Shown piece after piece: positions 31,852 to 41,723 of a stretch of 64,000 bases of DNA (its first letter is position 1; each line of letters opens with the position of its first letter). The stretch lies in the NCBI GenBank assembly GCA_964353135.1, contig CAYGTV010000002.1, positions 169,122 through 233,121 of the forward strand. The letters run 5' to 3'. The translations under genes were made by a program, and so were the position numbers. This DNA is from an uncultured Candidatus Saccharibacteria bacterium (GTDB taxonomy: Bacteria > Patescibacteriota > Minisyncoccia > Phycocordibacterales > UBA918). The notes beneath the pieces were generated by a model. It was given only the letters and a program-made list of their open reading frames with translations, did no database searches and was not told where the DNA came from.

Positions 31852-31892
31852 AAGAAAACAAATTTTGGACGAACTACTTTGTTGCGTTCACG

Positions 31893-31936
31893 AAAAAGAC
31901 CCTCGCTGGCCACCTGGCCCGTTCGGGTCTTTTTCG
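31893..31936 (+). terminator. Intrinsic terminator after rpsG (aaaaagaccc...gggtcttttt)
   Basis: Hairpin plus T-tract 40 bp after the rpsG stop. It separates rpsG from the downstream inserted genes. Confidence 0.6.
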
Positions 31937-31999
31937 TTCCGCGCCTCGTATTTCATTCCAAAATTTGATTTCTTTTAGTTAGCAAAGTATATTTTTTAC

Positions 32000-32515
32000 A
32001 TGGATCAAAACTATAATGGTGTGAAAATTGACGGTGTTTTATGGCTTCAAGAAGGACTTGATTGGGTGCCGTTGTGCTCGCGACATCATATGAGAATGCA
32101 AATGATGCATAATGACCAAAATTTCTCGTACTTGAAATGTGAAGAGTGTAAAGACTTCTATGAATTACCACGTGAGTTCAATGCTCAAAAAGAGTATATT
32201 TCAAATAAACTTGAAGCAAAAAAACTGAAAAAACTGAAATATATAAATATTGATGGTGAGCATATAGCTGTAGTTTCAGATAAAGTTAAAACAGCTGATG
32301 AAAAATACTTTGTTAAAGCCATCGTTACAGAATCAAAGACCGGCCCGGGAGTAGTCATTTATGCAGGAGAAACAGGCGGTCAAAAAATGCAGGCTTTTAT
32401 TGATCCAAATACAAAGAAATTATCTTTCGACCCAAGTGATAAGCATCCGGCCAAAGTCTTTGTTAAAATAGAAGCTGAATTTGATGACGGCCAGAAACAT
32501 TCAATAAAAAAATAA
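32000..32515 (+). CDS. Hypothetical protein with N-terminal Cys/His cluster (strongly AT-rich gene)
   Basis: 171 aa with CSRHH...C..C near the N-terminus and a Lys-rich region. The gene is much more AT-rich than its neighbours by eye. Confidence 0.45.
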   Translation: MDQNYNGVKIDGVLWLQEGLDWVPLCSRHHMRMQMMHNDQNFSYLKCEECKDFYELPREFNAQKEYISNKLEAKKLKKLKYINIDGEHIAVVSDKVKTADEKYFVKAIVTESKTGPGVVIYAGETGGQKMQAFIDPNTKKLSFDPSDKHPAKVFVKIEAEFDDGQKHSIKK

Positions 32516-32517
32516 AT

Positions 32518-32811
32518 ATGAAAATGCGACTGCATCCAGAGCCATTTAAGCGGATCAAATCAGGTGAGAAAAATATTGAGTGTCGGTTGAATGATGAAAA
32601 GCGGCGGCAGTTGTCGGTTGGAGATGCGGTCGTATTTGAAAACCGTGGTGATGGCGAGACTCTGGAGCGAACGGTGGTAGCGCTGCACACCTTCCCAGAC
32701 TTTGAATCAATGTTTGAAAAATTCCCCGGAGAAAGAATTAACGATGTTTATCAGTACTACACCCCAGAGGAAGAAAAAGAATGCGGAGTTATCGCTATTG
32801 AATTAAAATAA
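32518..32811 (+). CDS. ASCH-domain-like small protein
   Basis: About 95 aa with a beta-barrel ASCH-like pattern (RLHPEPFKRIKSGEKNIECRLNDEKR...GDAVVFE). Confidence 0.5.
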   Translation: MKMRLHPEPFKRIKSGEKNIECRLNDEKRRQLSVGDAVVFENRGDGETLERTVVALHTFPDFESMFEKFPGERINDVYQYYTPEEEKECGVIAIELK

Positions 32812-32816
32812 CCATC

Positions 32817-33941
32817 ATGCAAACACCACGATATGAATACTCGCGGACAGTGATCGCAGCGCGGATTACGGAACTGACTAATTTAGAACTGCCGTATGGG
32901 CTGGCGGTTCGCTATGCGATGAAGGCTAATCCGTTTCCGGAGATTTTGCAGATGATGCATGAGGGTGGGGTGCATTTCGATGCTAGTTCTAGTTACGAGG
33001 CTTCGCAGCTATTGCAGTTGGGTGTGCCAGGTTCACACATCTCGCTCTCGTCACAACAGTCACCCCACAATCTGCCGATGTTGTTAGCGGAGGGTGTGCA
33101 TTTTACTGCTACGTCAATGCGTCAGTTGGAACTGTTTTTAAATACACCAGATCGGCCAAACACAGTTGGGGTACGGATTAATCCTGACCTTGGGAGTGGG
33201 GCAAATAATCGCACCAATACTGGTGGTGTAAATGCTAGTTTTGGAATCTGGCACGAGTATATTCCCGACATTTTGAGTATGACGGCTGACGCCAGAGTAG
33301 TTGTCGATCACTTACACATCCACATTGGTTCAGGCGCTGACCCCAGCATCTGGGGTGAAGTGATGGAACGTTCACTCGATATGGCTCGTTTACTTGCCGA
33401 CGTCACCACACTCGACATCGGCGGTGGGTACAAAGTTGCGCGTTTCGGCGAAGAGCAGGAAGCTGACATGTTGGCTATAGCAGCCGTGTTTAAAGAAAAG
33501 CTAACAGTGTTTGCTGCGGAAACTGGAAGGGAACTGAAACTAGAAATTGAACCAGGCACGTATTTCATTGCTCACGCCGGAACTCTAGTTGCTGCTGTTG
33601 ATGATATTGTCGACACTGGGAAAAACGGCAACACATTCCTGCGACTTAATACTGGGATGAATGACTTTTTGCGTACTACGCTCTATGGCGCGCAACACAA
33701 GATAGAAGTCATAAATGAGCGTGAAAAGGAGGAGCAGTATATAGTGGTTGGTCATAACTGCGAGTCAGGTGACATTTTTACAACCAAGAAAGGTGACCCA
33801 GAAGTTATCGAACCTAGAGAATTAAAAACAGCAGCAATCGGTGACGAAGTCCGCATTTACGACACCGGTGCTTATTGTGCCAGTATGCGGGCGAAGGGAT
33901 ACAATGCGTTCCCAGATGCAGTTGAGATAATGGTTGATTGA
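32817..33941 (+). CDS. PLP-dependent decarboxylase, Orn/DAP/Arg decarboxylase family (diaminopimelate-decarboxylase-like)
   Basis: The PLP-lysine motif YAMKANP, HIHIGSG, EPGTYF and the C-terminal GAYCASM match the alanine-racemase-fold decarboxylases (LysA, ODC, NspC). Confidence 0.75.
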   Translation: MQTPRYEYSRTVIAARITELTNLELPYGLAVRYAMKANPFPEILQMMHEGGVHFDASSSYEASQLLQLGVPGSHISLSSQQSPHNLPMLLAEGVHFTATSMRQLELFLNTPDRPNTVGVRINPDLGSGANNRTNTGGVNASFGIWHEYIPDILSMTADARVVVDHLHIHIGSGADPSIWGEVMERSLDMARLLADVTTLDIGGGYKVARFGEEQEADMLAIAAVFKEKLTVFAAETGRELKLEIEPGTYFIAHAGTLVAAVDDIVDTGKNGNTFLRLNTGMNDFLRTTLYGAQHKIEVINEREKEEQYIVVGHNCESGDIFTTKKGDPEVIEPRELKTAAIGDEVRIYDTGAYCASMRAKGYNAFPDAVEIMVD

Positions 33942-34016
33942 AAAACTAAAAACGGTATAGTGATTCTGCGAAAGGCTGGGGTGCTCATGTAGTGTTCTAG
34001 TGAAAGTTGTATGATA

Positions 34017-34199
34017 CTCACTTTCGTAGTCGGTCATCTTGGCTGATAGGCTGGTCGGCGCGAATCGCGACCACGCTGCCATCGGGGTCTGGACTATACT
34101 CAGGCTCTATTGTTCAAAAAAGCCCTGCGGGGTGCACTGTGAACGTTGACCGCACCGGCGCAGGTTGTCTCCCACGACAACCTGCGCCTTTTCTTTTTT
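34017..34199 (+). repeat. ~183-bp direct repeat, copy A, ending in an intrinsic terminator (ggcgcaggttgtc tcccacg acaacctgcgcc ttttctttttt). Candidate sRNA or 3'-UTR element
   Basis: Near-identical to 35336-35507. It contains internal hairpins (ggtcggcgcgaatcgcgacc; ggtgc...gcacc) and a canonical terminator at 34157-34199. Confidence 0.6.
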
Positions 34200-34206
34200 C
34201 ATATAA

Positions 34207-34250
34207 ACAGTCTAAAACAAAACCCGCCCGCGAGATGTATCTCGCGGGCG
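34207..34250. terminator. Bidirectional hairpin terminator (aaaacccgcccgcgagatgtatctcgcgggcg...ttttt), member of a local terminator-repeat family
   Basis: Perfect stem with T-runs on both strands. Related copies occur at 34722-34765 and 36844-36889. Confidence 0.6.
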
Positions 34251-34258
34251 TGGTGTTT

Positions 34259-34654
34259 TTATGCGGGTAGTTCCTCTTTTCTGGTTTTGCTTTTCAGGGC
34301 GCAGTACAGACATGCATCCATGGCGTGTTCCATATACCAGTCGGGCATTTTCTTTTCGGTTTCTTCAATGATCAGATCTGCGGATTTGTTCCATTGCCCA
34401 GTCATCTCTGTTTCATCAGCGAGGACGATTTGCAGTTTAGTGCAAATACAATTGTCATGACCACGAGTGATTGTAAAGTGGATCACTTTGGGTTTGAATT
34501 CCGCTAGTTTTCCTCTAAGAGAAGTTCCGACTGGGGTTAATACTTTTTCGACTAGCAAGCTGATTGCTAGCAGACATTTTGCTTCAGAAAAGATTTTCTT
34601 CTCGCTAGTAGTGTTGCTGATTTTTGAGAGATCAAAAGTGATATCAGGCGGCAT
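34259..34654 (-). CDS. Hypothetical protein (131 aa; C-terminal H-x-x-x-A-C...C-x-x-C cluster)
   Basis: ORF between the two copies of the 183-bp repeat. It has the motif YMEHAMDACLYCALK. No confident family. Confidence 0.45.
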   Translation of the reverse strand: MPPDITFDLSKISNTTSEKKIFSEAKCLLAISLLVEKVLTPVGTSLRGKLAEFKPKVIHFTITRGHDNCICTKLQIVLADETEMTGQWNKSADLIIEETEKKMPDWYMEHAMDACLYCALKSKTRKEELPA

Positions 34655-34721
34655 TAGGCTTTCTCCGTAAGGTTCATCTTCGACTGGCTACAACCTACAC
34701 CTATAGAATCAATTTGTAAAC

Positions 34722-34765
34722 AAGACCCACCCGCCAGATTGCTCTGGCGGGCGGTTGTTTTTCAG
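34722..34765. terminator. Hairpin terminator (acccacccgccagattgctctggcgggcggttgttttt)
   Basis: Stem-loop plus T-run directly downstream of the minus-strand gene 34762-35208. Confidence 0.55.
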
Positions 34766-35208
34766 TGTCTGGAATATTGTGGTGGATTGAAGATAAACCA
34801 GACAAGGGCCACAACATTTGCCACCAACCACAACGGAAGTGCAATTGGCCAGACCAAACAAGCGGCCATTTTGCTCCATATCCACCACTTTGGTGGCATG
34901 AACAAATGCTCGTAGTCCTGATACCTTCGTTCTTTCAGAATCTGCTTGAATGATTTTTTGAGACCATGCATACCAGTCGTACTGTTGCCCATGTTGGCGT
35001 ATTTCTTGATCCATCCTCGGGCTCGCGTAATTCTAGCAATGTCGCCATGCCAGCCGGGTATAGAGCAGTGCAGATCGGTTCGCAGCATTTTCCAGTACAG
35101 CTTGCTTCCACCACCGCTGTCATAGAAAGCCCAACGGTACGTGAAATGGTACGAAATCAGAAAGGCGATTGGACTGGTCGCAAGCATAATCAAAATCCAG
35201 ATATTCAT
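34762..35208 (-). CDS. Hypothetical membrane protein (148 aa, Trp-rich)
   Basis: Hydrophobic segments lie at both termini. Second gene of the repeat-flanked cassette. Confidence 0.45.
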   Translation of the reverse strand: MNIWILIMLATSPIAFLISYHFTYRWAFYDSGGGSKLYWKMLRTDLHCSIPGWHGDIARITRARGWIKKYANMGNSTTGMHGLKKSFKQILKERRYQDYEHLFMPPKWWIWSKMAACLVWPIALPLWLVANVVALVWFIFNPPQYSRH

Positions 35209-35335
35209 CAGTATTCTCCCAAAGTTCTATTTGAGTCAAACTTATCCTGATTCCATTATTTTGTAAATAGTTTATAGTAATTCTACGAAAGGTTGATGTG
35301 TCAGAGTTGCGCCTCACTTCAAGATAGCGGAAACG

Positions 35336-35507
35336 CTCACTTTCGTAGTCGGTCATCTTGGCATGATAGGCTGGTCGGCGTGAATCGCGACCACGCTGCC
35401 ATCAGGGTCTGGACTATACTCAGGCTCTATTGTTCAAAAAAGACCTGCGGGGTGCACTGTGAACGTTGACCGCACCGGCGCAGGTTGTCTCCCACGACAC
35501 CTGCGCT
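35336..35507 (+). repeat. ~183-bp direct repeat, copy B (terminator stem degraded by a 1-nt deletion, weaker T-tract)
   Basis: About 97% identical to copy A by eye. It ends 20 bp before the ATG of ORF 35528. Confidence 0.6.
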
Positions 35508-35527
35508 TTCTGCTATATTTATAAAAT

Positions 35528-35962
35528 ATGAAACTGTATCACGCATCAAAGCATCGGTTCGATGTGATCAAACGAAGTCAGGCACAGCATCCGGCAGCTG
35601 ATGAGTTTGGTGTGCCAGCCGGTGAGCTACGAAACAAAATCTATTTCTCACCTAACTTTGGGTTTGCACTCGCGATGGCAGCTGGACCAAATGGCATGAC
35701 TAGCTTGAGCGACGGTCAGATTAGTTTTGAGCGACAAGATGAGTTTGATCCAGAGCGTCAGGTATATATCTACGAAATTGATTCAGAGCTGATTCCAGAG
35801 GAGTTGCTTGAACAAGTTGATGACGAACAGGTTGCTATTGATGCAGACGAAATCAAGCCAGAGGTTGTTCATGAAATGAAAGCAGAACAAGTGTTTGAAT
35901 ACTATGAGTTAACAGAATGGAAGCATCCTGATGAAAGAAAGAAAGAGATGAAGTTTATATAA
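35528..35962 (+). CDS. Hypothetical acidic protein (144 aa)
   Basis: ORF. No family recognised. Confidence 0.45.
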   Translation: MKLYHASKHRFDVIKRSQAQHPAADEFGVPAGELRNKIYFSPNFGFALAMAAGPNGMTSLSDGQISFERQDEFDPERQVYIYEIDSELIPEELLEQVDDEQVAIDADEIKPEVVHEMKAEQVFEYYELTEWKHPDERKKEMKFI

Positions 35963-36088
35963 AACAAAACTAACTCCGGAGGGCCGGCCTCCGGAAAATG
36001 GATAATTGTGCCCCTTTCCACAATTGCATCGTACTGGGTACGGGTGTATAAAATGAATGGGAGGTCTTTCTAGTTTTGGAGTAGACTA

Positions 36089-36781
36089 ATGACGCATTTG
36101 ATTTCACGACGTCGGTTTGTTGCTACTGGTGCAGCATCACTCTGTAGCCCCACTGTGTTACGTGGTGGTGTAACAAAGATTGAGCTTAACCTGATGCTTG
36201 ATTGCTCAGGTAGTATGTTCAAAACTGCTATCCCGGGTATCAGTAGTTCGATACCCTCGGATAAATACCAAGTGCAGCGAGATGGACATGCGGAAGGCCT
36301 ACTGTCTGTAGAAGTCCGCGAGTTTCTGCAATGGCACAAGGTCCACGTTCGGGTGTATGGCTGGTCCAATATTCCGGTACTGCACTGTGAACGAGTGGTG
36401 GAAAGTTTCGCCGATGTTGACTGGCTGGCAGTGCAGGTAGCAGGAATGGATCTATACGATCGTTTGTCTGCCGGCGCAACGCTACATGATCAAGCTGTCG
36501 ATCCGTTTACGCTTCCTCCGCCTTTGGGAATCAGACGGGTTATCGACATCTCGACCGACGAGCCACCTTGGTCGGAACGGATAGATCTGTGCCTGAGTTC
36601 TCGTGATTTGATCTACGGTGCACGCGGAACGGTCAATGTCTTGGCAATTAATCCTACCCCTGAAATGCATCGATCGTTACTCGACTCACTCGTGACACCT
36701 GACGGTTTCATAGAGGAAGCAAAGGGTCTTGGTGACTATCACCGAGCGATCAAAGCCAAGCTTATTGGTGAGTTGCTATAA
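36089..36781 (+). CDS. vWA-like protein with a twin-arginine (Tat) signal peptide (possibly DUF1194-type)
   Basis: N-terminal SRRRFVATGAASL is a Tat consensus (S-R-R-x-F-V). MIDAS-like DxSxS (LMLDCSGSM) directly follows the signal. Confidence 0.55.
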   Translation: MTHLISRRRFVATGAASLCSPTVLRGGVTKIELNLMLDCSGSMFKTAIPGISSSIPSDKYQVQRDGHAEGLLSVEVREFLQWHKVHVRVYGWSNIPVLHCERVVESFADVDWLAVQVAGMDLYDRLSAGATLHDQAVDPFTLPPPLGIRRVIDISTDEPPWSERIDLCLSSRDLIYGARGTVNVLAINPTPEMHRSLLDSLVTPDGFIEEAKGLGDYHRAIKAKLIGELL

Positions 36782-36843
36782 AAAGCCGAGCGTCCGGATA
36801 GTAATCTAATCCGGGCGTTTCTGACTAGAGCCCTTATATAACA

Positions 36844-36889
36844 AAACCCGCCAGCGATGTGTCTCGCAGGCGGGGCTTTCTTTTTGAGC
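36844..36889. terminator. Bidirectional hairpin terminator (aaaacccgccagcgatgtgtctcgcaggcgggg ctttcttttt)
   Basis: Member of the same sequence family as 34207-34250. It lies between convergent genes. Confidence 0.55.
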
Positions 36890-36896
36890 AGGAGTT

Positions 36897-37058
36897 TTAT
36901 TCGCCGGCACATTGTGGGTACTTTGTGACTAGTTCCGCATAGTGCATCCGCCTCACTTCATCGCCTCGGGCTTTCCTGTCTTCAGGATCTAACCCTTGTT
37001 CATCTAGCCACTCGAGAATATTTTCGCGAAGTGTTTGGGTTTCAGGGGTGTCAGTCAT
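36897..37058 (-). CDS. Hypothetical small protein (~53 aa from MTDTPETQ)
   Basis: Short ORF upstream of a terminator. Weak support. Confidence 0.3.
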   Translation of the reverse strand: MTDTPETQTLRENILEWLDEQGLDPEDRKARGDEVRRMHYAELVTKYPQCAGE

Positions 37059-37068
37059 GTTCGTACTC

Positions 37069-37425
37069 CTAAACTTGGGTTGAAACCAGAAACATAAACC
37101 AGATTTCATCTGATAAAGGGTCAGGCGTTATTTCATAAAGAACGAAACTTTGAAAGTCTTGCAGACTAACTATCCATACCCGACCACCTTCTGGTCGTTT
37201 GCTTTTAAGAAACCTGCAATCACGTGGGAGCCTGTCTAGATTGAAGCCATCTTCAGGATTGTAGGCCGATTGCATTGCCGTGGTGACTGATATTTTGCGT
37301 TCGCAAACAAGCATGCCTGGTATTAGAACTTGGATTGGGTCACCAAAGACTTGTTTATCTTGCGCCTGAGCCGGAATACCAAGTAGTAGCAATCCGACAA
37401 GTAGTGCGTGGAATATGTGCTGCAT
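37069..37425 (-). CDS. Hypothetical secreted protein (signal peptide ...GIPAQA/QD)
   Basis: N-terminal Sec signal with an AxA cleavage site. 118 aa. Confidence 0.45.
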   Translation of the reverse strand: MQHIFHALLVGLLLLGIPAQAQDKQVFGDPIQVLIPGMLVCERKISVTTAMQSAYNPEDGFNLDRLPRDCRFLKSKRPEGGRVWIVSLQDFQSFVLYEITPDPLSDEIWFMFLVSTQV

Positions 37426-37519
37426 CGGTTGCTCCTTTCAGCGATCTGTTCCACTAAAAATATGCCTTTTGGAACACAAAATTGCAAGTCATGGTCCGCT
37501 AATTTGTTACACTACAAAC

Positions 37520-38077
37520 ATGCAATACGAACAAATGAAACTTGGTGAAGTCTTACGATTTTGGTTTGAAGAACTAACACCAGAGCAGTGGTTTGCTGGT
37601 GGGGAAGAACTAGATGCAAAAATCAAAGAACGATTTTCTGACATTCATACTCAGGTGGCAGCTGGTGAGTTTTGGGAGTATCGGACCGACGCCCACGCGT
37701 ACCTGGCAGAAGTGATTGCGCTGGATCAGTTTTCACGCCAGATGTTTCGGGGGAGTGCAGAGGCGTTTGCCTACGATGGTATGGCACTAACACTTGCACA
37801 GCATGCAATTGCAGCTGGCTTTGACCAGCAATTGGACCAGTCTGAACGACAATTCTTATATATGCCGTTTATGCACTCGGAGTCAAAACAGATTCACGCT
37901 GCAGCAGTGCCATTGTTTGAGTCACTTGGCGAGCCTGAAGTCATCAAGTACGAGCACATCCACAAAGACATCATTGATCAGTTTGGTCGGTACCCGCATC
38001 GTAACCAAATGCTCGGGCGAGAATCGACTGCAGAAGAAACAGACTACCTAGCCAACAATCAAGAAAGCTTCTTTTAA
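37520..38077 (+). CDS. DUF924-family protein
   Basis: The conserved N-terminal LRFWFE...PEQWF and the central and C-terminal HRNQ-LGRESTAEE pattern are typical of DUF924. Confidence 0.6.
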   Translation: MQYEQMKLGEVLRFWFEELTPEQWFAGGEELDAKIKERFSDIHTQVAAGEFWEYRTDAHAYLAEVIALDQFSRQMFRGSAEAFAYDGMALTLAQHAIAAGFDQQLDQSERQFLYMPFMHSESKQIHAAAVPLFESLGEPEVIKYEHIHKDIIDQFGRYPHRNQMLGRESTAEETDYLANNQESFF

Positions 38078-38109
38078 ACCATATTCTTAAAATTTGCTAC
38101 ACTACATAC

Positions 38110-38655
38110 ATGAAACACTTTAACTATATTTTCCTTGGAGTAATGATGGTTGTTGTATTGGGTGCGATGTATCTCTGGCTGGCAGAAACAGCCGAAGCTC
38201 CAATGCTAGAGGAGGGAGTGATGTGTACCGCTGATGCAATGGAGTGTCCTGATGGTTCGTTTGTGGGACGACAAGGTCCAAACTGTGAGTTTGCAGAGTG
38301 TCCGGCTCCGGCAGAAACAGCCGAGACAAACCAAATGATCCAGGTCGCTTCACCGCAACCAGGCGACACAGTTAGTAGTCCGCTACAACTAACGGGACAA
38401 GCTACCGGACTTTGGTTTTTTGAAGCATCTGCCCCAGTTGTGGTCGAAGACACAAATGGCAATGTGTTAGGGCAAAGCTATGTTACAGCCCAAGGTGACT
38501 GGATGACAACGAATTTTGTATCGTTCAGCGGCAACATTTCGTTCAACGTCCCAGCGGGGGTAACTAACGGATTTATAATTTTCAAAAAAGATAACCCGTC
38601 TGGCGAACCACAATTTGATGATGAGTTGGCGGTGCCAGTACAATTTGCTCCGTAG
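38110..38655 (+). CDS. Secreted protein with a Cys-rich segment plus Gmad2-like Ig-fold domain
   Basis: A signal or anchor is followed by CTADAMECPDGS...CEFAECP and then an SPQPGDTVSSPLQLTGQATG...FEASAPVVVED pattern resembling Gmad2 immunoglobulin-like domains. Confidence 0.5.
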   Translation: MKHFNYIFLGVMMVVVLGAMYLWLAETAEAPMLEEGVMCTADAMECPDGSFVGRQGPNCEFAECPAPAETAETNQMIQVASPQPGDTVSSPLQLTGQATGLWFFEASAPVVVEDTNGNVLGQSYVTAQGDWMTTNFVSFSGNISFNVPAGVTNGFIIFKKDNPSGEPQFDDELAVPVQFAP

Positions 38656-38661
38656 CAAGGT

Positions 38662-39162
38662 ATGAATATCTCGTTTATCGGCATGTCGGGCGCCGGCAAG
38701 AGTTACGTTGGTGCATATGTTGCCAAGGCGTTTGATTTACAGTTTGTCGATATCGACCAAGAAATGGAGAAACGGTATGGAAAACCTTTGCAAGACATTT
38801 TGGATCAATTAGGAGAAGCTAAATTCCTGGAGGAACAAGCCGGTCAAATCAAAGATTTGCAAGGTCGAGATAACCTAGTTATATCTCCGGGCGGTAGTGT
38901 TGTGTATTCAATTGATGCGATAAAGTGGCTGGTCGCAAATTCTGTCGTTGTGTATTTATCTGTGCCGTTTGAGACTATTGAAAACCGTATCGCTGCTGAT
39001 GTGCGCGGAATAGTAGGCTTGAGTGAGAAAAGTCTATGTGATTTATACGAAGAACGGAGGATGCTATATGAATCATACGCCCATCACATTATTGTTGCCG
39101 ACAGCAAAACACCTGAAATCATCACCCGTGAATTGCGTGATATACTGAATATTATTTCCTAA
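38662..39162 (+). CDS. Shikimate-kinase-like P-loop kinase
   Basis: Starts at the P-loop ISFIGMSGAGKS followed by the DxD region. About 166 aa, a shikimate kinase / gluconokinase-type fold. Confidence 0.6.
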   Translation: MNISFIGMSGAGKSYVGAYVAKAFDLQFVDIDQEMEKRYGKPLQDILDQLGEAKFLEEQAGQIKDLQGRDNLVISPGGSVVYSIDAIKWLVANSVVVYLSVPFETIENRIAADVRGIVGLSEKSLCDLYEERRMLYESYAHHIIVADSKTPEIITRELRDILNIIS

Positions 39163-39171
39163 GTATTTGCC

Positions 39172-39648
39172 ATGAATGAAACTGCGCCACAAATACACTA
39201 TCAAGAAAACCTCATTAGTCCTGAGGTTCGTGAAAAGTACGAAGCTATGACCGAGGAAGAGGCCGCAGAAAAGATCATAGAATCAGTAGAAAGGGCACAA
39301 GACCTAATCGCAGAGCTCAAAGAGTACGACAAGACTGATAAAGACAATAATGTCATCCATATTCACGATCGAGCTGAATGGAATGAAGCAAAAAAGCTTT
39401 CAAGGGAGCTTAAAGAAAATTTAGTGTTTATTCCGTTTCACATTTGCGCTAAAAATGATTTACCTTTTCACCCCTCTGAGCAGAGTGAAAAAATACAATA
39501 CAAACACAACCGGATGCCAGAAGATCCAGCTGACTCTGGCTATGCTGATAAACTTGAGTACAAGCATAAAGCAATACCGGAATCCGACAGAATCGAGGTT
39601 GATCAAATGGCAGAGACTCCGCCTGGTGTAGTAAAACTTGCCTCGTAA
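39172..39648 (+). CDS. Hypothetical protein (158 aa)
   Basis: ORF only. Confidence 0.45.
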   Translation: MNETAPQIHYQENLISPEVREKYEAMTEEEAAEKIIESVERAQDLIAELKEYDKTDKDNNVIHIHDRAEWNEAKKLSRELKENLVFIPFHICAKNDLPFHPSEQSEKIQYKHNRMPEDPADSGYADKLEYKHKAIPESDRIEVDQMAETPPGVVKLAS

Positions 39649-39674
39649 TAATTTTAATCAGTTCTTTTGTACCT

Positions 39675-40730
39675 ATGACCTTTGATTTTGATGCTGAAAT
39701 TAAGCAACACCTGGACGTTGTAAAGACCCTTGAGCGAGTGCCGGGTGTGTTTACCGCTTCGCTTGACGACACCTTTTATAACAAAGCGTGGTTGCGTGAT
39801 ATTTATTTCATCACGCTTGGTTTCTTTGAAACTGGTGACATGGAAACCACCAAGAATGCTGCCAAGGCATTGCTAACCGTGTTTGTAAAACACAAAGACA
39901 AGATCAACTGGGCAATCGAAAACAAACCAAACGAAGCGTGGCAATACATCCATGCGCGGTTCCACCCTGAAACCTTTGAGGAATATTGGGAAGAGTGGGG
40001 CAACAGTCAAAACGATGCTGTGGGTGAGGTACTCAACCTGCTGGTGACTCTGGAACTGATGGACGAAAGTGTAATCGAGACCCAAGACGAAAAAGAGATG
40101 GTGCAGAAAATTGTCGATTATTTGATCGCGATTGAATACTGGCAAGATGACGATAACGGAATCTGGGAAGAAAACCTCGAAGTGCACGCTTCCTCAATTG
40201 GTTCTTGTGTGGCTGCGCTCAAAAAGGCTAATGAGATCGACTGGCTCGACGTACCTGATGTGGCGATTGAACGAGGTGAACACGCTTTGCGCGCCCTACT
40301 ACCCCGAGAATCAGTCACCAAGTTCACCGACCTGGCACTGCTGACACTCATCTATCCTTTTAATGTCACCACCGAAGAAGAAACGTTGGAGATTCTCAAA
40401 AACGTCGAGTACCACTTGGTCAAAGAACGTGGAGTGATCCGATACAAGTTCGACCGCTACTACAACAACAACGTCGATGGGTTTAGTGAAGAGGCGGAGT
40501 GGTGTTTTGGACTAGCGTGGCTTGCGATCATCTATGCAGAGCGAGGTGATAAAGAAAAAGCGTACTACTATCTGCGTCGATCAAAAAACGCAGTGACACC
40601 AGACGGGGTGGTACCGGAGCTGTACTACTCAAACACCGACAAACCAAACCCAAACACACCACTAGGTTGGGCCGAGAGCATGTACGTCGTAGCACTGCAG
40701 AAAGTAAAAGAAATGGAAGCAGCAGGATGA
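39675..40730 (+). CDS. Glycoside hydrolase family 15-like (glucoamylase / phosphorylase-kinase-regulatory-like) protein
   Basis: About 350 aa all-alpha protein with WLRD and EENLE-like acidic motifs reminiscent of (alpha/alpha)6 GH15 enzymes. Moderate support. Confidence 0.45.
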   Translation: MTFDFDAEIKQHLDVVKTLERVPGVFTASLDDTFYNKAWLRDIYFITLGFFETGDMETTKNAAKALLTVFVKHKDKINWAIENKPNEAWQYIHARFHPETFEEYWEEWGNSQNDAVGEVLNLLVTLELMDESVIETQDEKEMVQKIVDYLIAIEYWQDDDNGIWEENLEVHASSIGSCVAALKKANEIDWLDVPDVAIERGEHALRALLPRESVTKFTDLALLTLIYPFNVTTEEETLEILKNVEYHLVKERGVIRYKFDRYYNNNVDGFSEEAEWCFGLAWLAIIYAERGDKEKAYYYLRRSKNAVTPDGVVPELYYSNTDKPNPNTPLGWAESMYVVALQKVKEMEAAG

Positions 40731-40735
40731 TAAAC

Positions 40736-40770
40736 AAAACCGACACGAGCACTGCTCGCGTCGGTTTTGT
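40736..40770. terminator. Bidirectional terminator (aaaaccgacacgagcactgctcgcgtcggtttt)
   Basis: Hairpin between convergent genes. Confidence 0.6.
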
Positions 40771-40785
40771 GTATGTTGGTAGCAA

Positions 40786-41511
40786 TCAAGAAAGTGTATC
40801 CTCGGTGATCTCATCGCTGACACTAGGTGAGATTGCGAGTGCGACGATAACGCCTTTTTCTCGCAGGCAGATGTGCTGTAGCCGGTCTTCTAGTATGACA
40901 CTGTAAATCAGTTTGATATCAGCCTGGTCTGACTGGTACAGCTTGGTGTCTGAACCAGCCATGCACCAATCTGCCGTATCAGGATGCAAGTTTTCTAGTT
41001 TTCCCTGCGCAGCTCGTAGTTCCTTGGCGATCAGTTCCTGGCTGAGTGACTGAGTTTTTTCTACTAGTTTGGGTGTAGAGAGTGAGGTACTCCAGTTTGT
41101 ATCTACAATCAGCTGCATCCGGTTCTTTTTCTTCTTTTTATTTTCAATAAGTCCGAGGGTTGGACCAATGATGGCTAGTCCGACGATCCCTAGTACGAGG
41201 TTTTTAGGTTCTTCAAATTGATCAGCCCAAGAAGATAATTCGCCGCGGGCAACATAGGCTTCTGGTTGGTTTTCCAGCTGTTGTAACAGCCAGTGAGCCG
41301 AGCGAATTGCAGCAGTTTGCTCAGACGGGGTTATATAAATAGAACTGATATTTTCAGAGTTGCTGGTCATTGGCCAGTTTTGCGCCTGAACATACCAAGC
41401 TAGACTTTGAGCAAAATCTGCGTCAGTTTCAGCATATCGAATCAAAGCGTGGGTGTGCTGCACGTATTGTACTGCTTGTTGTAAAAGTATTGTGTGCGAG
41501 TTTTTCTTCAT
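40786..41511 (-). CDS. Hypothetical protein with a central TM segment (241 aa)
   Basis: ORF only. Confidence 0.45.
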   Translation of the reverse strand: MKKNSHTILLQQAVQYVQHTHALIRYAETDADFAQSLAWYVQAQNWPMTSNSENISSIYITPSEQTAAIRSAHWLLQQLENQPEAYVARGELSSWADQFEEPKNLVLGIVGLAIIGPTLGLIENKKKKKNRMQLIVDTNWSTSLSTPKLVEKTQSLSQELIAKELRAAQGKLENLHPDTADWCMAGSDTKLYQSDQADIKLIYSVILEDRLQHICLREKGVIVALAISPSVSDEITEDTLS

Positions 41512-41723
41512 AGGAATCGACTTTATGAATAACCTCTCTTGTATTATACGCCCGCTGCAATTAAAAAAAGCAAATTATCAGAACAGTGCTGTTTTGCGTA
41601 GGTTGCACCCTACGAGCACTGCTACTTTATATCCCAGGGCACCCTCTCTTGATTCCAAGAAATCAATTCACCTTGTGTTCCTTTCAGTCACTAAAGTAGG
41701 TTGCATAGTGGAGCTTATGAGGT

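Follow-up and report, generated by a model that had tools for sequence, protein, structure and literature searches.

Why should two nearly identical direct repeats, each ending in an intrinsic terminator, flank a pair of small genes in the genome of an uncultured Candidatus Saccharibacteria bacterium? The repeats lie near the middle of a 64,000-nucleotide (nt) stretch of contig CAYGTV010000002.1 (assembly GCA_964353135.1, positions 169,122 to 233,121), hereafter called the window, from whose first letter all positions are counted unless another contig is named. An earlier interpretation made from the letters alone (the sequence-only reading) had proposed a small RNA (sRNA) or structured 3′ untranslated region (UTR), or else a recombination scar, perhaps delimiting a mobile or phase-variable cassette. 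The answer that we favor, and hold to be fairly probable, is that the repeats are two copies of a new structured sRNA gene, duplicated by a homologous recombination event that inserted a 1,320-bp unit. What carries this answer was observed directly, namely, the repeat itself, its conservation, a covarying fold, the restriction of the element to one locus, and a single-copy allele in a relative. To speak of a scar was thus an understatement, since both copies are complete genes.

When the window was searched against itself by BLASTN, positions 34017 to 34190 aligned to positions 35336 to 35509 with 169 of 175 identities and two 1-nt gaps (E value of 1e-78), the two copies being spaced 1,319 to 1,320 nt from start to start. 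The near identity of the repeats therefore stands, except that the T-run of the upstream copy (copy A; 34189 to 34199) falls outside them. Their extent had to be revised, since homology begins upstream of position 34017, in a 23-nt collinear block located 56 to 58 nt ahead of the repeats (33956 to 33978, TATAGTGATTCTGCGAAAGGCTG, in copy A; 35273 to 35295, TATAGTAATTCTACGAAAGGTTG, in the downstream copy, copy B; 20 of 23 positions identical). The first letters of this block are TATAGT, and a segment within it, CU(G/A)CGAAAG, forms pairs with CUUUCGUAG at the repeat start. Given this pairing, the block belongs to the unit, whose true length is thus near 240 nt instead of the ~183 bp first proposed. 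Between block and repeat lie about 40 nt that form the middle of a 5′ hairpin domain (P0) and that diverge between the two copies. The repeat of copy A starts 75 nt past the stop codon (33941) of a decarboxylase gene, and the terminator of copy B ends 20 nt ahead of the open reading frame (ORF) that begins at position 35528, here called ORF144. Only these two copies are present in the window, as neither BLASTN nor a covariance search with filters off detected a third. The Logan short-read assembly of the source sample (ERR3534985; contigs L001 and L002) is broken inside the repeat, one contig ending at window position 34114 and the other starting at position 35470, and this assembly gives no reading of copy number or of a cassette-less variant.

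Contigs carrying homologues of ORF144 led to the first relatives in which the RNA is found. In contigs L018 to L027, which belong to one related species, a 171-nt match to copy A with 83.6% identity follows genes encoding ASCH and nucleoside triphosphatase (NTPase) proteins. A metagenome pattern scan, which used conserved blocks from homologues of this type and was not biased by locus, then recovered L063 (a 383-kb contig), L056/L057, L022/L061/L066, L058, L060, and L064, and L017 has diverged further while keeping the architecture. All true matches sit in the stretch from rpsL-rpsG to an ABC-F gene, and each contig of the relatives holds one copy. The 83.6% nucleotide identity between the RNAs of copy A and L027 compares with 87.2% for rpsL, 87.0% for rpsG, 75.7% for ASCH, and 67.9% for ORF144, while other intergenic DNA could not be aligned to L027 at all. 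The corresponding values against L063 are 90% for the RNA and 84% for rpsL-rpsG. Judged by these identities, the RNA is conserved to about the same degree as the ribosomal protein genes, which points to selection on it.

The unit is organized, in order, as the TATAGT box, the P0 domain, a four-way junction (P1 to P4), and an intrinsic terminator. In its core, P1 closes the hairpins P2, P3, and P4, the terminator follows directly, and P2 carries a purine-rich bulge that reads GAUAG in copy A and in most other copies. The predicted fold of copy A has a free energy of −95.2 kcal/mol and a z score of −4.66 relative to shuffled sequences, the z score of copy B being weaker. A covariance model (CM) built from four sequences of the core variant common to A, B, L063, and L027 matched copy A at 34026 to 34192 (199.6 bits) and copy B at 35345 to 35511 (191.9 bits), and it also recovered a second core variant, present in L056 (75 bits) and L022 (36 bits). 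In the CM alignment of seven distinct sequences, 95.9% of the pair cells hold standard pairs, compared to 35 to 45% when the partners are slid; six pairs changed on both sides (three in P2 and three in P4), and six pairs of P3 show one-sided variation with pairing retained. The unconstrained minimum free energy (MFE) fold of L056 yields P1 to P4 and the terminator independently of the model, and L017 folds into a closing stem, three hairpins, one extra hairpin, and the same terminator. In copy B, P0 is a three-way junction with a GAAA tetraloop hairpin; it can be aligned without gaps to the P0 of L056, also a three-way junction, with a compensatory change from AA/UU to CG/CG in the base stem and with AGCG-GAAA-CGCU in copy B corresponding to AGCA-GGAA-UGUU in L056 at the GNRA hairpin. 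The TATAGT box stands at an equal distance ahead of the RNA in A, B, L063, L056, and L017. The structured RNA candidate of the sequence-only reading is thus borne out by its fold, and relatives carry further copies with covariation, so that the outcome by which that reading would have been refuted was not obtained. A coding function is excluded by 1-nt frameshifting indels between copies that are 97% and 90% identical. A pseudoknot between the P3 loop (ACUAUAC) and the upstream GUAUAGU was also considered and rejected, the second core variant (L056 and L022) having another P3 loop.

The 3′ ends of both copies read GGCGCAGGTTGTC-TCCCAC-GACAACCTGCGCC, and a terminator hairpin is kept in all members of the family, with a conserved stem sequence. 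In copy A, it is a perfect 13-bp stem (34157 to 34188) followed by TTTTCTTTTTT, with a predicted free energy of −25.8 kcal/mol. Copy B, as had been read from the letters, lacks one A in the 3′ arm of the stem and has a weaker T-tract (TTTCTGCTAT); a C-to-T change further leaves a G-U pair at the stem base, and the predicted free energy is −19.4 kcal/mol. The terminators located ahead of ORF144 (B, L063, and L056) have a U-poor tail, with 5 to 6 T in the first 9 nt, and two of these three (B and L063) have a defect in the stem. The stem is most stable in copy A, whose tail holds 8 T in 9; the other copies that do not precede ORF144 have 6 to 7 T. As would be expected of an independent sRNA gene, the element ends in a terminator and is conserved in sequence and structure in intergenic DNA across species. 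We thus read it as terminated on its own and probably also transcribed on its own, and the separate sRNA that had been one option for copy A gains support as a stand-alone structured RNA with a strong terminator. Copy B probably serves in addition as a leader through which ORF144 is reached by read-through, given that it has a weakened terminator and that the 20 nt ahead of the ATG hold no other evident promoter. Our best guess is that the RNA acts in trans or binds a protein.

How the second copy arose is suggested by L063, which holds the cassette-less allele anticipated by the sequence-only reading. This relative carries a single RNA gene made of the 5′ domain of A, the common core, and the weak terminator and tail of B (CTTCTGCTATATTTATAAAATATG), followed by the ORF144 homologue. 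A 705-nt stretch of L063 corresponds to window positions 33944 to 34190 joined to about 35510 to 35969, an arrangement that is the exact product expected of recombination between A and B. In a three-way alignment, A equals L063 at every differing site left of position 34125, and B equals L063 from about position 34180 rightwards. Because A matches L063 leftwards and B matches it rightwards, the exchange point is placed in the 55-nt block, identical in A and B, that lies between. The view that the repeats are long enough for homologous recombination is also supported. Copy B had also been described as orphaned, which it is not: it occupies the position of the single copy in L063 and L056/L057, directly before the ORF144 homologue, and its distinct 5′ domain has an orthologue in L056 with the compensatory changes described above. 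Copy B itself reads as a mosaic in which an L056-like P0 is joined to an A-like core, a combination that would be expected from recombination of alleles within the conserved stretch CTCACTTTCGTAGTCGGTCATCTTGGC and in the core.

We infer the direction and mechanism of the recombination, and the circularity of its donor, from these comparisons. The starting state would have been a single RNA gene like that of L063, into whose conserved core homologous recombination would have inserted the 1,320-bp unit, either through one crossover with a donor that was circular or tandem and bore another allele or through unequal exchange. The incoming unit would have comprised a strong terminator tail, a bidirectional terminator (t) with ORF c131, a terminator (t′) with ORF c148, the promoter region, a B-type P0, and the core. 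Copy A would then combine the resident 5′ domain with the incoming strong terminator as a stand-alone sRNA gene, and copy B would combine the incoming 5′ domain with the resident weak terminator and keep the ancestral place before ORF144. Recombination between A and B would remove the cassette and restore the single-copy state of L063.

The two minus-strand ORFs previously noted between the copies, c131 and c148, were confirmed; neither has a match in Pfam, NCBIfam, PADLOC, or PHROGs. The cassette that contains them is missing from L063, L056, and L016. Parts of it have counterparts elsewhere: the downstream flank of A with t (34177 to 34250) is 93% identical in L016, where it adjoins a different gene, and a segment 77.5% identical to the c148 module (t′ to the divergent promoter, 34718 to 35276) adjoins ASCH in L079, from another metagenome. 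In L079, the TATAGT-like box of this module (TTATAAC) faces unrelated sequence. Look-alike bidirectional terminators, with a consensus of about TAAAACAAAACCCGCC...GGCGGGTTTT, follow minus-strand genes of the island at 34213 to 34241, 34716 to 34744, and 36837 to 36865, and two of the three have 87 to 93% identical counterparts in L016 and L063, beside different genes. Gene modules have seemingly been swapped at these terminators, because the look-alikes adjoin different genes in the relatives.

The locus as a whole is highly variable. The island spans window positions 31852 to 41723, and its set of small genes differs in every related genome fetched; rpsL/rpsG, GH15, and ABC-F share 92 to 100% protein identity among the closest relatives (L016 and L063). 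In the window, the order is ASCH, decarboxylase, RNA A, c131 (reverse), c148 (reverse), RNA B, and ORF144. The RNA stands between rpsG and ABC-F in L058; after rpsG, a 126-amino-acid (aa) ORF, ORF144, and a 454-aa ORF in L022; after ORF144, ASCH, and NTPase in L027; between ASCH and ORF144 in L056; and between a ClpP-like gene and ORF144 in L063. L016 retains ASCH and ORF144 and has lost the RNA save for the last 12 nt of its terminator. The RNA is thus a resident, and the most constant noncoding one, of a hypervariable, recombination-prone accessory island in a single Candidatus Paceibacteria clade; it is not dispersed as a repeat, nor is it a mobile element. Homologues of the decarboxylase place the source organism, too, among the Candidatus Paceibacteria, within the Candidate Phyla Radiation. 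The idea that copy A is the 3′ UTR of the decarboxylase gene fared poorly. Contigs sharing decarboxylase synteny (L003 and L004 to L009) carry no element, and the closest decarboxylase relative, in L003 (78% aa identity), has only a plain terminator after the gene; therefore, the element is not tied to the decarboxylase, and with a different upstream gene in every relative this is unlikely to be its defining context.

Other variation within the island was observed. At L022 3631 to 3670, L058 4247 to 4290, and L060 713 to 750, P0 and the 5′ strand of P1 are replaced by a module, TCGTGCCGGAGGTCGAACCTCCGTCCTCCG, that resembles a tRNA T-arm with a short loop; ARAGORN calls no tRNA there, and a tRNA 3′ remnant in this module (GGAGGTCGAACCTCC) was set aside as unsupported by that program. 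The 5′ end of the module is a recombination junction, because the upstream sequence differs in the three contigs. The motif GGCCTTGCNTCC, with adjacent hairpins of the CTCCGAAGG type, is found in the same island of three relatives (L016 4549 to 4560; L017 799 to 810 and 2648 to 2659; L079 24 to 35) and not in the window. This type of motif may be another small repeated element. L079 and L017 also have a 132-nt segment in common (94% identity).

No known RNA family accounts for the element. Rfam 15 gave no match at the gathering score anywhere in the window (1 to 64000), only chance-level matches at E values up to 10 in 33900 to 35600, and no match at the RNA in seven homologous loci, in keeping with the earlier failure to assign it by eye; ARAGORN found no tRNA or tmRNA in the window or at the homologous loci. 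6S RNA, signal recognition particle (SRP) RNA, RNase P RNA, tmRNA, and T-box elements were rejected on the basis of their known architectures, consistent with the Rfam results. The exact 22-mer CTGTGAACGTTGACCGCACCGG is absent from species genomes and JGI metagenomes. The translated repeat, aimed at spurious ORFs over homologous copies, had no match among 5.8 billion proteins. Five patterns run against viral contigs returned only chance 17-mers, and BLAST of the whole unit and cassette against phage and plasmid collections gave no match. A pattern of the terminator hairpin had 26 matches in 185,579 species genomes, almost all due to chance; a single one is plausibly related, in L030, with the terminator and tail in common and no RNA body. 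In this contig of a more distant Patescibacteria genome (JAZKIQ010000005.1, 2991 to 3066), GGCGCAGGTTGT-GAAA-ACAACCTGCGC TTTTTCTTTTATAAAATAT stands directly after a gene. The terminator module might predate the RNA, or it might be able to move by itself. Our search of a paper library for structured or regulatory RNAs of Paceibacteria yielded no report.

ORF144, the gene that follows copy B, belongs to a small and rare family, with 90 clusters (50% identity level) in a set of 1.84 billion proteins, and has no match in Pfam, NCBIfam, or PADLOC. Its AlphaFold model has a mean predicted local distance difference test (pLDDT) score of 83. The top PDB matches of this model in Foldseek are tRNA 2′-phosphotransferases, Tpt1/KptA (probability of 0.99, E value of 0.012, template modeling [TM] score of 0.38), and its BFVD matches are phage proteins, including PolyVal ADP-ribosyltransferases (best E value of 5e-5, TM score of 0.57). 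Three members of the family match Pfam ART-PolyVal and DUF3990, all below threshold. Residues H5, Y39, and Y82 are invariant, and E68 is nearly so. The modeled structure thus points to a probable, not established, ADP-ribosyltransferase (ART) fold.

The position of copy B invites a different view of the element, as a cis-regulatory leader of ORF144 (a riboswitch or protein-dependent attenuator) of which copy A and the other stand-alone copies would be displaced or decaying versions. The RNA does end 20 to 25 nt before the start of ORF144 in B, L063, and L056/L057, with a conserved tail, CTTCTG(C/T)TATATTTATA; its terminator stem is unusually conserved in sequence, and a multihelix junction with a conserved bulge looks aptamer-like. 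However, of at least 8 distinct contexts, no more than 3 stand ahead of ORF144, the L058 locus has the RNA and no ORF144, and the ORF144 homologues of L016, L017, L027, L069, L074, and L075 lack such a leader. Conservation is just as high in the nonleader copies, which have kept strong terminators. P1 shares no bases with the terminator, the two form together in MFE folds, and the antiterminator pairing CCUGCG/CGCAGG is not conserved, its CCUGCG strand at the apex of P4, the sole candidate, being missing from L027 and from the second core variant (L056 and L022). Neither a consistent 5′ UTR placement nor a mutually exclusive terminator/antiterminator pairing was found, and we regard a leader of this kind as unlikely. 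The same gene order in copy B, L063, and L056 (promoter, RNA, leaky terminator, and protein gene) would also suit a functional pair of RNA and ORF144, either as a module of the type III toxin-antitoxin kind or with the RNA as substrate or regulator of the enzyme. The resemblance of ORF144 to the folds of Tpt1/KptA and phage PolyVal-ART, enzymes whose substrates are nucleic acids, argues for such a pair, as does the distance of about 1.5 to 2.3 kb within which RNA and ORF144 are found wherever both occur. This too seems rather unlikely, since the RNA is present without ORF144 in L058 and ORF144 without the RNA in L016 and L075, Tandem Repeats Finder detected no tandem repeats in 33800 to 35700, the fold assignment is weak (TM scores of 0.38 to 0.57 and subthreshold Pfam matches), and PADLOC gave no match.

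Two further explanations were considered. If the copies were functionless duplicated noncoding DNA with a terminator, similar only through recent duplication, their 97% identity and narrow taxonomic range would be accounted for; what makes this improbable is that the element is 84 to 90% conserved across genomes in which the neighboring intergenic DNA cannot be aligned and most neighboring genes are less conserved, that its helices carry compensatory changes, and that its architecture is kept in the second core variant and in L017. Alternatively, a small mobile cassette that integrates site-specifically could have left the repeats as its duplicated attachment site, the terminator hairpin being the recombination site in the manner of attC or repetitive extragenic palindromic (REP) sequences. 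The hairpin (GGCGCAGGTT..ACAACCTGCGC) is indeed the most conserved part of the element, the L016 remnant begins inside its 3′ arm, the right repeat boundary falls in the same arm, and flanks differ right up to the RNA ends in several genomes. Yet the cassette and its surroundings contain no recombinase or transposase, and the element shows neither the terminal inverted repeats nor the target-site duplications nor the dispersed copies of miniature inverted-repeat transposable elements and insertion sequences. The element is absent from viral, phage, and plasmid collections, the hairpin pattern had its one plausibly related match in the 185,579 species genomes searched, and the left identity boundary is 160 nt away from the hairpin, in better agreement with homologous than with site-specific exchange. 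An attachment site is thus very improbable, and the mobile or phase-variable cassette of the sequence-only reading finds no support, every homologue found being confined to one locus with one copy per genome.

A duplicated sRNA gene remains the explanation that we prefer, and several points weigh against it. Insertion here, as opposed to deletion in L063, rests on parsimony; a donor with the exact inserted unit was not found, and c131 is a singleton among 15 billion proteins. Exact-pattern scans miss diverged copies elsewhere, which limits the single-locus claim. In L027, the orthologue has neither P0 nor a TATAGT box, begins 5 nt past a stop codon, and may be a 3′ UTR, and the L022-type copies lack the 5′ strand of P1. 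The covariation set consists of seven distinct sequences from closely related genomes in an alignment fitted to the model, and its statistics are therefore indicative only. Finally, the −35 elements of the putative promoters are weak in several copies.

Table 1. Predicted features of the duplicated RNA locus and its surroundings in the window
Feature	Position	Strand	Remarks
Ornithine/diaminopimelate/arginine (Orn/DAP/Arg)-type decarboxylase	32817..33941	+	Upstream of copy A; context only
Promoter-like site, copy A	33934..33961	+	TTGATT, 16 nt, TATAGT; overlaps decarboxylase stop codon
Predicted RNA copy A, ~238 nt	33962..34199	+	P0, four-way junction, strong intrinsic terminator
P0 domain of copy A (A-type)	33966..34029	+	Base stem CUGCGAAAG/CUUUCGUAG around long hairpin; same type in L063
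Core of copy A	34029..34155	+	P1 (34029-34036 with 34147-34155) closes three hairpins; covariation
Terminator of copy A	34157..34199	+	Perfect 13-bp stem, 6-nt loop, T-run
Putative crossover block, 55 nt, A = B	34125..34179	+	Three-way comparison with L063
Putative inserted cassette	34200..35272	none	Two minus-strand ORFs, two terminators, divergent promoter region
Bidirectional terminator t	34225..34250		In cassette
ORF c131	34259..34654	−	In cassette
Terminator t′	34727..34754		In cassette
ORF c148	34762..35208	−	In cassette
TATAGT box, copy B	35273..35278	+	Region up to 35276 belongs to c148 module
Predicted RNA copy B	35279..35512	+	B-type P0, core as in A, weakened terminator (35477-35507)
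ORF144	35528..35962	+	Probable ART-fold protein, 20 nt past copy B terminator

The locus offers an RNA of about 240 nt, with clear limits and covarying helices, which falls outside every current family and is a candidate for a new Rfam entry and a target for metatranscriptomics. The window, with the insert, and L063, without it, form a natural before-and-after pair that would illustrate how cassettes enter a streamlined genome by recombination in a conserved RNA gene. A more speculative idea, to which we give little weight, is that the RNA is a functional partner of the ART-fold protein (regulator, antidote, or substrate) or a homology anchor for cassette exchange beside rpsG. Were it such a partner, it would represent a new kind of RNA-protein module in bacteria of the Candidate Phyla Radiation (CPR), which are uncultured; were it an anchor, recombinase-poor, competence-proficient bacteria would be exchanging cassettes via an RNA gene. 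If no functional idea holds, an ordinary duplicated sRNA gene remains.

Several known systems resemble the locus in part. With the orphan structured RNA motifs obtained by comparative genomics, of which the surveys PMC2864571 and PMC8632094 are examples, the RNA has in common that it is a conserved intergenic element with covarying helices. It differs from them in lying outside Rfam 15 and in being found only in a narrow Paceibacteria clade at one locus. As in the type III toxin-antitoxin system ToxI/ToxN, a promoter, a noncoding RNA, a leaky terminator, and a protein gene follow each other in B, L063, and L056, but the RNA is not a tandem-repeat array, the protein is not an endoribonuclease of the ToxN/AbiQ type, and the two also occur apart. 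Copy B likewise recalls riboswitch leaders, structured 5′ elements that end in a terminator directly before a gene; some leaders with terminator expression platforms, for example SreA and SreB of Listeria, also act in trans. Unlike such leaders, the RNA matches no Rfam riboswitch, has no conserved antiterminator, and in most copies does not precede a gene. Genomic islands inserted at tRNA or tmRNA genes have part of the RNA gene directly repeated on both sides, and here, too, a conserved RNA gene edges variable DNA and RNA gene repeats bracket an insert. This insert, however, lacks an integrase, the repeat extends over nearly the entire gene (175 nt or more) and not just over a stretch at the 3′ end, the variant sites are distributed as homologous exchange would predict, and ARAGORN finds no tRNA or tmRNA. 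PrrF1/PrrF2 of Pseudomonas and OmrA/OmrB of E. coli are sibling sRNA genes that arose by duplication. Like them, the copies in the window are two near-identical sRNA genes, close together on the same strand, each with its own promoter box and terminator and with one main differing segment; unlike them, they encode a longer and far more structured RNA, with a four-way junction and an extra domain, enclose two unrelated convergent genes, include one copy fused to a downstream gene, and have no known seed region or chaperone.

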